Both the position numbers and the translations under genes were made by a program. A stretch of DNA of 64,000 bases from Escherichia phage pEC-M719-6WT.2, in the sequence record OQ845958.1; one strand, written 5' to 3'. Positions 34,971-40,056 of the stretch are shown in pieces. The number at the start of each line of letters is the position of its first letter. The stretch's first letter is position 1. The notes below the pieces were generated by a model, which ran no database searches, was not told the DNA's origin, and was given only the letters and a program-made list of their open reading frames with translations.

Positions 34971-35264
34971 ATGGACCTTATTCGAGGACTTTCTCTAAGT
35001 CTATTACTAATGGGCTGTTTAGGCCCAAATATGTCCTCTGCTACAGATGGTAAATTTACCCAGTATGCAGATAGTGCGATGCAAATCTATTCGCAATTCA
35101 AAGAACCCAGCGTCGAGCAGTCCGAACAATTTTGGGCTTTTATTAAAACTGAATGGAACAATAAGAGTCAATGTGTAAATGAAATCACATGTCAAATTGA
35201 TGGCCGTGCGGCTGCAGTCGAATACGCTAAATTAATGAAGGTAAAATTGGAAGATGAAATTTGA
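34971..35264 (+). CDS. rI: lysis inhibition regulator RI (periplasmic antiholin)
   Basis: 97 aa as T4 RI; signal-anchor N-terminus; SVEQSEQFWAF and C-terminal KLEDEI resemble recalled T4 RI. Confidence 0.75.
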   Translation: MDLIRGLSLSLLLMGCLGPNMSSATDGKFTQYADSAMQIYSQFKEPSVEQSEQFWAFIKTEWNNKSQCVNEITCQIDGRAAAVEYAKLMKVKLEDEI

Positions 35265-35637: not shown

Positions 35638-35643
35638 TTCAAA

Positions 35644-35673
35644 AGGTCTGCCTTCGGGTGGACCTTTTTTTTT
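35644..35673 (+). terminator. rho-independent terminator
   Basis: 9-bp stem with TTCG tetraloop followed by T9. Confidence 0.75.
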
Positions 35674-35741
35674 CATTTAGGGGGTTTACATCCTCATAAA
35701 AAGGGTGTACTATTATCCCATCAACTACTGAGGAGAATACA

Positions 35742-36185: not shown

Positions 36186-36368
36186 ATGTTAACTACTGAA
36201 CAGATTGAACAAATCCTTAAACTTGCTACTGCTATTGAACGCGATTCTTATGATATTGCAGTAGAACATTGTGAAGGCTATTCATATTCCGGAATAGAGC
36301 AGTGTAAACGAGATTTAGCGAATTCTAAAGCAGCATTGGTTGAGTATCTGAATGAGTTGAAAGAATAA
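36186..36368 (+). CDS. hypothetical protein
   Basis: 60-aa ORF. Confidence 0.45.
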   Translation: MLTTEQIEQILKLATAIERDSYDIAVEHCEGYSYSGIEQCKRDLANSKAALVEYLNELKE

Positions 36369-36625
36369 TGGCTGTTGGATTTGCAAAAGACGGAGCTGAA
36401 CAGCTAGAGATGGAAGCGGTTGTACAAGCCGCTATCACCCATGCGAGAGCACAAGTTGCAGTTGAAAGGGAGTCTGCTGAATTCTGTTTTGACTGCGACG
36501 AAAAAATTCCTGAAGCGCGGAGACAAGCGATTAGGGGTGTGATATATTGTGTTGGTTGTCAATCAATGCATGATGAAATTTTTAAACGTGAGCCACGAAA
36601 CTGTTGGCACAGGAGCATGAGATGA
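36368..36625 (+). CDS. TraR/DksA-like C4 zinc-finger protein
   Basis: CFDCDEKIPEARRQA...CVGCQ four-Cys finger. Confidence 0.6.
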   Translation: MAVGFAKDGAEQLEMEAVVQAAITHARAQVAVERESAEFCFDCDEKIPEARRQAIRGVIYCVGCQSMHDEIFKREPRNCWHRSMR

Positions 36626-36942: not shown

Positions 36943-37503
36943 ATGATTATTGAAACAACTGAATTGTTTGGCGAACTGACTGCTGAAGTGGTTAATAACG
37001 CAATCGAGCTTTGTCAAGAAGACGATAAAATCGTACTGACTATCCAAGATATTAAACCACTTTATAATTTAATGGTTTTGGATAGAGCTGACTATCTCAA
37101 TGGACGTAATAGTGCTCCTGTCGATATTAACGATGAGCTATACGCTTATATCTATAAAAATGAAAATGGGTTTAATCTGGAAAATGGTATAGAATGCCTG
37201 AGCATTAGCGATTCTGATAAATTCTTTGATTGTATTTTCAAACTCTTCCAGGAAGAATGTAAACCGGAAGTTGAATGGAAAGTTCCGGGACAAGATGCAC
37301 TGATTCGCTCTAGTGAAACGTTTGAAGGCGATGAAGAGGAACTAGATTATAATACTGAATTAACTGTGCATCAACATAACGGCCGTGACCTGTTATCTAT
37401 TGTCCAAAGACATGACGGCGAAAGTGAAGTGGTATTTACTAAGGACGAGCTAAAAGTTTTAGTCTCTTATCTGAACTCTGTTATCCCAACTATGAACTCT
37501 TAA
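36943..37503 (+). CDS. hypothetical acidic protein
   Basis: 186-aa ORF with SD GAGGAA. Confidence 0.55.
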   Translation: MIIETTELFGELTAEVVNNAIELCQEDDKIVLTIQDIKPLYNLMVLDRADYLNGRNSAPVDINDELYAYIYKNENGFNLENGIECLSISDSDKFFDCIFKLFQEECKPEVEWKVPGQDALIRSSETFEGDEEELDYNTELTVHQHNGRDLLSIVQRHDGESEVVFTKDELKVLVSYLNSVIPTMNS

Positions 37504-37514
37504 GGAAAATTATT

Positions 37515-37967
37515 ATGATTATCAATACAAACTCATGGCACGCTCGTTTCCACGACCGTTTTTATGACCGTCATTCTCGTCCACACTCTTTGTGTGCTTA
37601 TTTCTGGAAAATGGTTTGGGCTTGTTTTGTTTGTGCCGTTTTTATCGGTAGTATGGTTTTTGGATTAACTGTCGCGGGTGCAGGTGTATTAGAGCATTTC
37701 TTTGTATTAAGCACCCCGGTCGGTTTAGGCTTAGGGTTTATTTTAGGACTAGCTACACTGGCTCTTATTCTGACGGTAGCATTTGGTCTAATGTATGGTC
37801 TAATGAATTTATGGGCCTGGTACGATTTACGTAAAGAAGAAAAAGAATGGGAACGCATTAAAGCTAAACGTGAAGGAAAGGAAATTAAAGAAAATGTTTT
37901 CATTCAATATATCAAAGCTCGTAAATCTAAGATGTGCCCAGTAATCCACTTCGAGGACAAAGAATGA
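37515..37967 (+). CDS. membrane protein
   Basis: 150 aa, two long hydrophobic segments. Confidence 0.55.
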   Translation: MIINTNSWHARFHDRFYDRHSRPHSLCAYFWKMVWACFVCAVFIGSMVFGLTVAGAGVLEHFFVLSTPVGLGLGFILGLATLALILTVAFGLMYGLMNLWAWYDLRKEEKEWERIKAKREGKEIKENVFIQYIKARKSKMCPVIHFEDKE

Positions 37968-38974
37968 AAACTATTATGAAAGGCTACTTCGGTAGCCACC
38001 TTTATGGAACAAGCACCCCAGAATCTGATGTTGATTTTAAAGAAATCTTTGTTCCTCATCCGCGAGATATCCTGCTCGGAACCGCGATGAATCATACAAA
38101 CCTGAACACGAATAACACGGCTACCAAAAACACAAAAGACGATATCGATCATGAATTATTCAGTCTGAAATATTTCTTTAAACTGGCTGCCGAAGGCGAA
38201 ACCGTTGCCCTGGATATGATTCACACCCCGGCTGACCTGGTAGTCAAATCCGATTTACCAGATGTATGGAAGTTTATTCAAGACAACCGTTCGCGGTTCT
38301 ATACAACTAACATGAAAGCCTATTTGGGGTACGTCCGTAAGCAAGCTTCCAAATATGGTGTTAAAGGTTCTCGATTGGCTGCACTGCGTGGTGTACTGAC
38401 AATTGTTAACCAGATTCCTGAACAGTGTGTCGATTATCAAGAAGATGGTTCTATTAAACAACGTCGAACTAAAGTAGAAGATATTAAGCACCGGCTCCCT
38501 GAAAACGAGTTCTGTGAATGGGTATTTCATAACCATGAGAAAACAGGTCCTCAAACGTTCTATACTGTTCTTGGACGTAAGTACCAAACCACCCTGTCTT
38601 TAATCGAGCTCAAGCAATCTCTGAATAAACTTGATGCCGAATATGGTGAACGTGCTCGTAAGGCTGAAGCCAATGAAGGTATTGACTGGAAAGCATTGAG
38701 TCATGCTTACCGAGCTGGATATCAGCTGAAGGAAATCTATCAAACTGGTGACCTGGTTTATCCACTTAAAAATGCTTCTATTATTAAAGCAATAAAAGCT
38801 GGTGATATGCCTTTCAAAGTAGTTCAAGGCCTGTTGGAAAATACTGTTGATGAAGTTGAAGTCCTGGCCATCCAGGCTGCTAAGAATGGTATGCCTGCGA
38901 AGGTGGACATGAAGTTCTGGGACAAGTTTGTTGAGGAGGTATATCTTGACAACCACAATTCCTATTATCGATAA
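37964..38974 (+). CDS. Pol-beta superfamily nucleotidyltransferase-like protein
   Basis: GSHLYGTSTPESDVDF fits hG[GS]-x(9-13)-DhD motif; 336 aa; ATGA overlap. Confidence 0.55.
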   Translation: MKTIMKGYFGSHLYGTSTPESDVDFKEIFVPHPRDILLGTAMNHTNLNTNNTATKNTKDDIDHELFSLKYFFKLAAEGETVALDMIHTPADLVVKSDLPDVWKFIQDNRSRFYTTNMKAYLGYVRKQASKYGVKGSRLAALRGVLTIVNQIPEQCVDYQEDGSIKQRRTKVEDIKHRLPENEFCEWVFHNHEKTGPQTFYTVLGRKYQTTLSLIELKQSLNKLDAEYGERARKAEANEGIDWKALSHAYRAGYQLKEIYQTGDLVYPLKNASIIKAIKAGDMPFKVVQGLLENTVDEVEVLAIQAAKNGMPAKVDMKFWDKFVEEVYLDNHNSYYR

Positions 38975-39170
38975 CCAGGAAATCAAGGTCTTCTTATCGT
39001 ATGGAAGACCTAATAAAGGTCGGCGCTGGTATCTCGAAGCAGTCTGTCGGGAAACTGGCAGACGAATCAACAATAAGTACATATGCAAACCAACTCCCAA
39101 ACAAACTCGCAGGTTTGTTAACTGGGCTATCAATACTATAAGATTCCATAATTTTTGGAGTGCAATCTAA
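38946..39170 (+). CDS. candidate small basic protein with TTG start
   Basis: TTG 7 nt after GAGGAGG, overlapping 3' end of upstream gene; no ATG in frame. Confidence 0.3.
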   Translation: MTTTIPIIDNQEIKVFLSYGRPNKGRRWYLEAVCRETGRRINNKYICKPTPKQTRRFVNWAINTIRFHNFWSAI

Positions 39171-39192
39171 GGGCCATCTGGCCCTTTTTTGT
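39169..39192 (+). terminator. rho-independent terminator
   Basis: GGGCCA-tct-GGCCC followed by TTTTTTG. Confidence 0.7.
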
Positions 39193-39939
39193 TTATGAAG
39201 TCACTGTTTGTTCGGCTACTAACAATGCAGAGGTTATTGTAAAGTTGCCGCCATTTGGCATAACAGTTATCGCTGTACCATTGGTTGCCATTGCCCCATC
39301 TTTATCAATGCTAAAGAACGTTGTAAAAGACAAAATATCTGTAGCATTTTCCGGACGATTTTGTATATAAGTGTTTCCGTTGGTTCCAACGAAATTTAAT
39401 GTTATACTTCGAGCTTGCGAGCTTCCTGTAAAATTACCAATAAGGTTGAGTTTAAATAATAGGCTTCTGTCTTGGTTATATGGCCACAACTTATCATCAG
39501 TGGTTCTAAAAAACGGAGATAGAGTCCCTGCTGTCGGCGGAATCCCCTTTAAAACACTAATTATGTTTGACGTCACACCATTAGTTAATAGAACGTTTAT
39601 ACCACTCCAAAACACCTCGGATTTTTCCCTCTTTCCTGCTGTATCAGTTAAAAAATCATCAACAGTTCCTGTATTTCCCAAGTCAAGCCATATCTGATAA
39701 GAAGACTTTCCATCCCCGCCTGGGTCTCCTTTTGGTCCTGGTACACCCGGTTCTCCTTTGGGACCAGGCGGACCCGGTATCTGAGTTTCCGAGCTGGACA
39801 TAGTTTGGAAAAAACGCTCTTTGCTATCTGTAGGAGTATTCGGCAACACCATAGTAGAACCAAACAAATACCAATTATTAGCCAAGGCAGCCTGGACTTT
39901 TTCATTGAGTTCATCAACAGTTCTTCCGGATAAAATCAT
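39193..39939 (-). CDS. collagen-like repeat protein (fibre-like), only minus-strand gene in the early region
   Basis: 248-aa ORF with GPPGPKGEPGVPGPKGDPGGDG (seven G-X-Y triplets); SD AAAGGAG. Confidence 0.7.
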   Translation of the reverse strand: MILSGRTVDELNEKVQAALANNWYLFGSTMVLPNTPTDSKERFFQTMSSSETQIPGPPGPKGEPGVPGPKGDPGGDGKSSYQIWLDLGNTGTVDDFLTDTAGKREKSEVFWSGINVLLTNGVTSNIISVLKGIPPTAGTLSPFFRTTDDKLWPYNQDRSLLFKLNLIGNFTGSSQARSITLNFVGTNGNTYIQNRPENATDILSFTTFFSIDKDGAMATNGTAITVMPNGGNFTITSALLVAEQTVTS

Positions 39940-40056
39940 AAACTTTCTCCTTTATGGTTTTATTAAGTATTTTTATTTAGTATATGTGTACAACCAGATG
40001 GTCATGATGCATAATGATTCCATACTGAGTTACCAAATAAACAAACGGAGAATAAA

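Follow-up and report, generated by a model that had tools for sequence, protein, structure and literature searches.

Which kind of nucleotidyltransferase (NTase) is encoded between the rI and nrdC genes of an Escherichia phage, and on what does it act? The question is raised by a gene at 37964..38974 (+ strand, stop codon included) in a 64,000-nucleotide stretch of Escherichia phage pEC-M719-6WT.2 (record OQ845958.1), which was analysed as a whole and is called the window here. The original prediction, made from the letters alone, had placed this gene in the block between rI and nrdC and had recognized in its 336-residue product the hG[GS]-x(9-13)-DhD signature of DNA polymerase beta (Pol-beta) superfamily NTases, leaving the family to be assigned. 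The analysis described here identifies the protein, with near certainty, as a Pol-beta superfamily NTase of the RlaP family that belongs to the orthologous group of T4 NrdC.11, and suggests a role in tRNA repair that has to be weighed against several alternatives.

Family, fold and orthology with T4 NrdC.11

The protein starts with MKTIMKGYFGSHLYGTSTPESDVDF, in which F9-G10-S11 is followed, after ten residues, by D22-V23-D24-F25 (37988..38038, + strand). This is the signature noticed by eye in the original prediction, and it is conserved rather than due to chance, as G10, S11, G15, S21, D22 and D24 are invariant across 128 aligned homologues with identities down to 22%. The Pfam family RlaP (PF10127, "RNA repair pathway DNA polymerase beta family") matches the protein with an E value of 1.3e-11 and a score of 45.2 bits (cutoff 23), precomputed matches to PF10127 exist for nearly all homologues, and PHROG 388 ("nucleotidyltransferase") matches over the full length (E=1e-129). 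An AlphaFold2 model based on the 128-homologue alignment, with a mean predicted local distance difference test score (pLDDT) of 92, possesses the alpha/beta core of a Pol-beta NTase, and the best solved-structure matches obtained with this model in a fold search (Foldseek) are all NTases. Sequence searches against the PDB gave nothing meaningful, neither with the single protein nor with the 128-sequence profile. Profile search, structure prediction and fold search thus bear out the proposed superfamily, and the family that the original prediction left to HHpred or Foldseek can now be given as RlaP/PF10127, T4 NrdC.11 orthologous group.

The 3-kb region 37000-40000 is 99.3% identical to Escherichia phage ECML-359 and about 90% identical to the Gaprivervirus vB_EcoM_RZ, in which the corresponding copy is annotated "nucleotidyltransferase" and is flanked by a membrane protein on one side and the block leading to the NrdC thioredoxin on the other. 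In vB_EcoM_RZ, NrdC follows about 6 kb downstream of this copy, and rI is found in the window at 34971..35264, in agreement with the predicted location. The T4 equivalent is nrdC.11 (NC_000866.4, 55435-56445; NP_049709.1), also annotated "nucleotidyltransferase" in RefSeq. Its product has the same length and is 81% identical to the window protein over 336/336 residues, free of gaps, and the map positions are equivalent, downstream of mobD.1 (a mobD.1-like gene in the window) and upstream of the block from nrdC.10 to nrdC. The surroundings are not the same. In T4, mobD.1 and nrdC.11 are separated by mobD, which encodes an HNH homing endonuclease, whereas the window has no mobD and the start of its NTase gene overlaps the mobD.1-like membrane open reading frame (ORF); the window gene is followed by a minus-strand collagen/tail-needle-knob ORF, and nrdC.11 of T4 by nrdC.10.

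Homologues were found in 1518 phage records, mainly of T4-like phages whose hosts are enterobacteria, Aeromonas, Acinetobacter or Vibrio, and 1.84 billion cluster representatives, searched exhaustively, yielded 3067 relatives at E values up to 1e-3, of which 805 at up to 1e-30. The family assignment as such was already known, since the gene is an annotated member of a named family: nrdC.11 orthologues were matched to the COG3541 nucleotidyltransferase domain by Nolan et al. 2006 (PMC1524935), and T4 NrdC.11 was named as a PF10127 member in a December 2025 preprint (PMC12776372). Many GenBank or UniRef entries nevertheless label the NrdC.11-type protein 'thioredoxin', and single entries call it an HNH homing endonuclease or an ArsR regulator. 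The label 'thioredoxin' is wrong and appears to have spread from the locus name nrdC.11, since the protein lacks thioredoxin similarity.

The N-terminal Pol-beta NTase catalytic domain comprises about residues 1-112 (37964..38299, + strand) and is followed in the AlphaFold2 model by two long helices (residues 118-150). The model and the column conservation further delineate a beta-rich subdomain of residues 154-208 (38423..38587), inserted between the helices of the C-terminal half and bearing a conserved VLGK/R205 motif, and a C-terminal helical bundle of residues 213-335 (38600..38968) with invariant G228, R230, K243, H247, R250 and P267; D241-W242, nearly invariant in this bundle, completes a DWK motif. 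The C-terminal domain type, on which the original prediction sought information, is thus a helical bundle like those of HEPN proteins and of the C-terminal domain of kanamycin nucleotidyltransferase, preceded by a small beta subdomain. The third acidic residue, which it also wished to have located, is most likely D62 (codon at 38147..38149). Column 62 is D in 122/128 homologues and E in 5/128, and it is likely to provide the third catalytic carboxylate because it lies on the predicted strand 61-67 and stands, in hhalign, opposite an aspartate that does not vary in canonical RlaP, the first D of LDxNGWD ('lDl' in the consensus).

The distribution of differences between the window phage and T4 along the gene is uneven. 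Codons 169-240 (38468..38683) carry 35 synonymous and 0 nonsynonymous differences, which amounts to 100% protein identity, with the flanking parts of the gene being 46-88% identical; nonsynonymous differences number 10 in codons 25-48 and 24 in codons 265-312. A recent recombination tract shared with T4 was considered as an explanation and rejected in view of the 35 synonymous differences within the segment, because of which its identity is best ascribed to purifying selection. The most constrained segment of the protein therefore lies outside the catalytic domain and includes the larger part of the beta subdomain as well as the helix toward the DWKxxSHxxR motif. Basic residues that are invariant or nearly so family-wide (K134, R137, K/R205, R230, K243, H247, R250, K278) would fit a surface that binds nucleic acid or triphosphate.

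A candidate role in tRNA repair

Burroughs and Aravind reportedly proposed in 2016 that RlaP proteins act against nucleotide-excising nucleases. The same proposal is made in the preprint, which mentions nucleases that, like RloC, first cut and then excise a nucleotide (PMC12776372). In that study, the two RlaP enzymes assayed, Pseudomonas proteins whose genes are flanked by rtcB and rtcA, were found to add one or two nucleoside monophosphates (NMPs) or their deoxy counterparts (dNMPs) to RNA 3'-OH ends, with a preference for Mn2+; DNA and protein were no substrates (PMC12776372). With a mimic of cleaved tRNA, the enzymes act preferentially on the 5' half; their products can be sealed by T4 RNA ligase 1, and with a tRNA that is short of one anticodon-loop nucleotide the add-back of a nucleotide partly restores aminoacylation (PMC12776372). 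They also accept many RNAs, including those of rRNA size, use all four nucleoside triphosphates (NTPs), and label full-length tRNAs in total RNA (PMC12776372). At the level of distribution, RlaP mirrors RNA ligases in jumbo phages (Iyer et al. 2021; PMC7824862).

It is of importance whether the association with RNA repair also holds for proteins of the NrdC.11 type. We therefore scanned bacterial and archaeal genomes, taking one genome per species, for full-length relatives (residues 1 to ~325 aligned, 34-50% identity), called the ORFs at the resulting 80 loci, and clustered and Pfam-scanned the neighbours within 6 kb. The commonest specific neighbour was RtcB (10 loci), followed by Ro60/TROVE (6) and Pnkp (5), with Hen1 and RtcA also present. 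At least one of RtcB, Ro60 and Pnkp was found in 17/80 loci, usually on the same strand, as compared to a chance rate of ~1% in a random 12-kb window by a rough estimate; the link with RNA repair thus holds for NrdC.11-type proteins themselves, beyond distant family members. In this respect the full-length bacterial relatives resemble canonical RlaP, which is likewise associated with RtcB, Pnkp and Ro60 genes and owes its family name to such neighbourhoods of RNA ligases and repair genes; the RlaP of P. fluorescens and P. aeruginosa belongs to an rtcB-rlaP-rtcA operon (PMC12776372). The window protein also shares with canonical RlaP the general build, with helices C-terminal to the NTase domain, and resembles it in the GS...DxD...D residues and in the first helices thereafter.

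By analogy with the Pseudomonas enzymes, NrdC.11 may supply a nucleotide-restoring step that feeds tRNA repair by the phage enzymes Pnk and Rnl1, a role for and against which we see about equal weight. A host anticodon nuclease would cut a tRNA and take out a nucleotide, in the way that RloC excises the wobble base. The polynucleotide kinase/phosphatase of the phage would then turn the 2',3'-cyclic phosphate or 3'-phosphate into a 3'-OH and phosphorylate the 5' end, after which NrdC.11, using D22, D24, D62 and a divalent metal, would add one or two NMPs, untemplated, to the 3'-OH of the 5' fragment. Sealing of the break by RNA ligase 1 would bring part of the repaired tRNA back to full length. 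Except for the nucleotide addition, these steps are established for T4 with PrrC (PMC12776372). The preprint notes a chemical mismatch for RtcB (PMC12776372); such a mismatch would be absent in the phage, since a T4-type ligase needs exactly a 3'-OH and a 5'-phosphate. The possible functions listed in the original prediction fare unequally: modification of nucleic acids, here RNA 3' ends, is supported, and the making or sequestering of nucleotide signals is not, there being no CD-NTase, OAS, SMODS or PADLOC match.

Several considerations plead against this repair role. The activity data concern two Pseudomonas enzymes and no phage enzyme (PMC12776372), so that the activity of the long-form phage protein and its partnership with Pnk and Rnl1 are presumed by analogy. 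Resemblance to canonical RlaP is confined to about residues 6-140: full-length bacterial relatives and the window protein cover only positions about 19-158 of the 249 in the PF10127 profile (profile positions 23-141 in the case of the window protein), and hhalign aligns the sets of long and short proteins over residues 8-140 only (probability 93%, E 2.4e-7). For the C-terminal half of ~190 residues, which comprises the beta subdomain and should hold the substrate, neither Pfam nor hhalign detects sequence similarity to canonical RlaP. Among IMG/VR phage loci, Rnl1 or RtcB occurs within 8 kb of the gene in only 3/78, and no ligase is found among the ORFs scanned beside the NTase gene in the window. 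In vB_EcoM_RZ, Pnk (HAD_PNKP plus a kinase domain) and Rnl1 are encoded about 85 kb from the NTase gene, and T4-like genomes scatter these genes; local linkage in phages thus neither supports nor refutes a repair role. Furthermore, untemplated addition gives no account of how the correct base would be restored. Finally, nrdC.11 is dispensable in laboratory hosts, since nrdC.11-mobD.3 was lost as a block in a T4 genome-reduction study (PMC9825161), yet this is to be expected of a counter-defence function. A remnant of the gene is seen in OL964745.1 (159,752 bp, named Escherichia phage T4), which retains only the final 39 nrdC.11 codons, consistent with the reported deletion.

A further point on the same side comes from the coexistence of long and short forms. 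A second, shorter NTase gene (252-278 residues) is present in 17/68 bacterial loci, and in 15 of these 17 it lies directly downstream on the same strand. Tandem arrangements of a long gene (about 305-320 residues) followed by the short one were noted, for instance, at twelve loci, several of them inside Pnkp, RtcB or Ro60 operons, and the two genes often share overlapping stop and start codons. The four short proteins that were scanned match the full profile (1-249) with E values of 1e-51 to 1e-79, and we therefore regard the short form as canonical RlaP. The co-occurrence in one operon indicates that the two forms are probably not redundant and that their activities differ. In the similarity network of the preprint, T4 NrdC.11 falls in another cluster than the assayed enzymes (PMC12776372), which suggests that the latter are of the short type, a reading based on the network cluster. 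The phage distribution differs too: the 86 phage records with canonical short RlaP belong mostly to jumbo phages, phiKZ-like or of Caulobacter, as opposed to the 1518, mostly T4-like, of the long type. No T4-type host genus was present for the short form in the organism tally or in the 30 listed rows, and no short form was found in the window.

Alternatives to the proposed repair of anticodon-loop breaks differ in how well they survive. An unlikely one is that the enzyme completes or repairs the 3' (CCA) ends of phage or host tRNAs. The bacterial enzymes would be suited for this, as they add one or two nucleotides to a 3'-OH and act on full-length tRNAs, and the window itself offers a possible substrate: at 18792..18944 a tRNA-Met(CAT) gene and a tRNA-Arg(TCT) gene abut, of which the first ends in ACC, with the next tRNA directly after, and the second encodes CCA. 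The tRNA-Met(CAT) would need completion of its 3' end after processing, because the terminal A is not encoded. T4 tRNAs without encoded CCA, however, rely on the host cca enzyme, which would argue against a phage-supplied activity. Moreover, the window protein has no similarity to CCA-adding enzymes, PolyA_pol (PF01743, CCA-adding/poly(A) polymerase) gave no Pfam match at E values up to 1 and is absent from the listed structural matches, and the bacterial context consists of ligase, Pnkp and Ro60, not of tRNA maturation genes.

Slightly less plausible again is that host or phage RNAs receive tails of a few nucleotides that influence their stability or processing, with a regulatory or host-shutoff role. 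The broad RNA and NTP acceptance of bacterial RlaP and the location of the phage gene in an apparent early-type transcription unit would agree with such tailing, but addition ends at one or two nucleotides, and in bacteria the association is specifically with repair enzymes, with no RNase or decay partner linked.

The production or priming of an oligonucleotide or nucleotide signal against host defence, in the manner of Hailong HalB or of CD-NTase/OAS enzymes, is considerably more improbable. The match of the structural model to HalB (PDB 9dbh) is generic (138 residues aligned, 12% of them identical), and HalB is shorter, with 217 residues as compared to 336. HalB uses a protein primer to synthesize poly-dA, by which the HalA channel is gated, whereas the window gene is without a conserved channel partner. 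The membrane ORF upstream of the gene was considered as a HalA-like partner and rejected: it accompanies the gene in 17/77 phage loci, all at least 67% identical to the window protein, and more distant phages lack it. At the bacterial loci, no channel or membrane gene was found as neighbour; the homologues are in RNA-repair operons. The window protein has no match to PADLOC models at E values up to 1, and a Pfam scan found no SMODS, Mab-21, OAS-type or CD-NTase domains. The score with the model for MntA, the MNT-HEPN antitoxin, is 13.7 bits, below the cutoff of 60, and no Rx4-6H HEPN RNase motif was seen on reading the C-terminal half of the window protein.

That the protein would modify small molecules, as aminoglycoside or lincosamide nucleotidyltransferases (ANT) do, is very improbable. 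Identities are 10-11%, no ANT-family Pfam domain matches, the activity would be of no clear use to a lytic phage, and the invariant basic residues R137, R230, K243, H247, R250 and K278 better suit a polyanionic substrate. Kanamycin nucleotidyltransferase/ANT(4') and the MNT-HEPN NTases share 8-12% identity with the window protein, which differs from them by the extra beta subdomain. The last idea, that the N-terminal motif is fortuitous and the fold unrelated, which the original prediction had itself envisaged as its refutation, is refuted: profiles, conservation of the catalytic residues, model and fold search all indicate an NTase, and nothing in its favour was found.

Start site and transcription unit

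A program-made ORF list extends the gene upstream to a GTG at 37934, but the ATG at 37964-37966 is the better start, because it is preceded by a GAGGA ribosome-binding site (37953..37957, + strand, six bases 5' of the ATG), overlaps the preceding stop codon as ATGA, and agrees with the homologues, which including T4 NrdC.11 have 336 residues and can be aligned from residue 1. From this ATG, the frame runs for 336 codons plus a stop that ends at 38974. The overlapped TGA is that of the ORF at 37515..37967, which encodes a 150-residue membrane protein, and the ATGA suggests translational coupling between the two genes.

The transcription unit of the NTase gene probably starts at a T4-early-type promoter-like site at 35685..35713 (+ strand; GTTTACA, 17 nt, TACTAT), just past a terminator at 35641-35668, although in the consensus scan such sites are no more numerous than in shuffled sequence. 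Its probable end is a GC-rich terminator-like hairpin with a T-run at 39169..39186 (+ strand), also found by consensus scan, 195 nt past the NTase stop. The 195-nt stretch between the stop and this strong hairpin (38975..39168) contains no convincing ORF and gave no Rfam match at the gathering threshold; over the whole window, Rfam at gathering thresholds detected the two tRNAs only, and nothing near the NTase gene. Upstream in the same apparent early unit are genes for a DksA/TraR-type C4 zinc-finger protein (36368..36625, E=8.5e-9) and for a putative transcription factor like T4 y05I (36943..37503; E 1e-36 and 1e-19 for the N- and C-terminal domains).

The 248-residue ORF that fills the T4 place of nrdC.10 right after nrdC.11 is located at 39193..39939 on the minus strand, opposite in direction to all neighbouring early genes. 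In its product, a short stretch of collagen-like G-X-Y (GPPGPKGEPGVPGPKGDPGGDGK) occurs together with a domain recognized by Pfam as Phage_tail_NK (E=4.7e-32), the tail needle knob of the Sf6 type. Upstream of the ORF are AAGGAG, a strong ribosome-binding site, and TAAATA, which partly resembles a late promoter; the ORF is covered by only ~10/435 close phage records.

The long form in phage biology

It is possible, although we regard it as tentative, that NrdC.11-type proteins are a distinct 'long' class of RlaP, in which substrate would be bound by a half (beta subdomain plus another helical bundle) unrelated in sequence to its counterpart in the short form, and that the long and short forms carry out two non-redundant nucleotide-adding steps or form a heteromeric enzyme, comparable to the split CC-adding and A-adding enzymes. 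T4-like phages would have kept the long form only, as a hitherto unrecognized third component of Pnk/Rnl1 tRNA repair directed against RloC-type nucleases. Since the C-terminal half of the phage protein is unlike that of the assayed enzymes, their activity and specificity cannot simply be transferred to it, and the strongly constrained segment of residues 169-240 is the place to seek substrate recognition. The reversal of PrrC tRNA cleavage by T4 Pnk and Rnl1 is the founding example of RNA repair, and NrdC.11, present in about 1500 sequenced phages, is the obvious candidate for extending such reversal to "smart" nucleases that remove a nucleotide.

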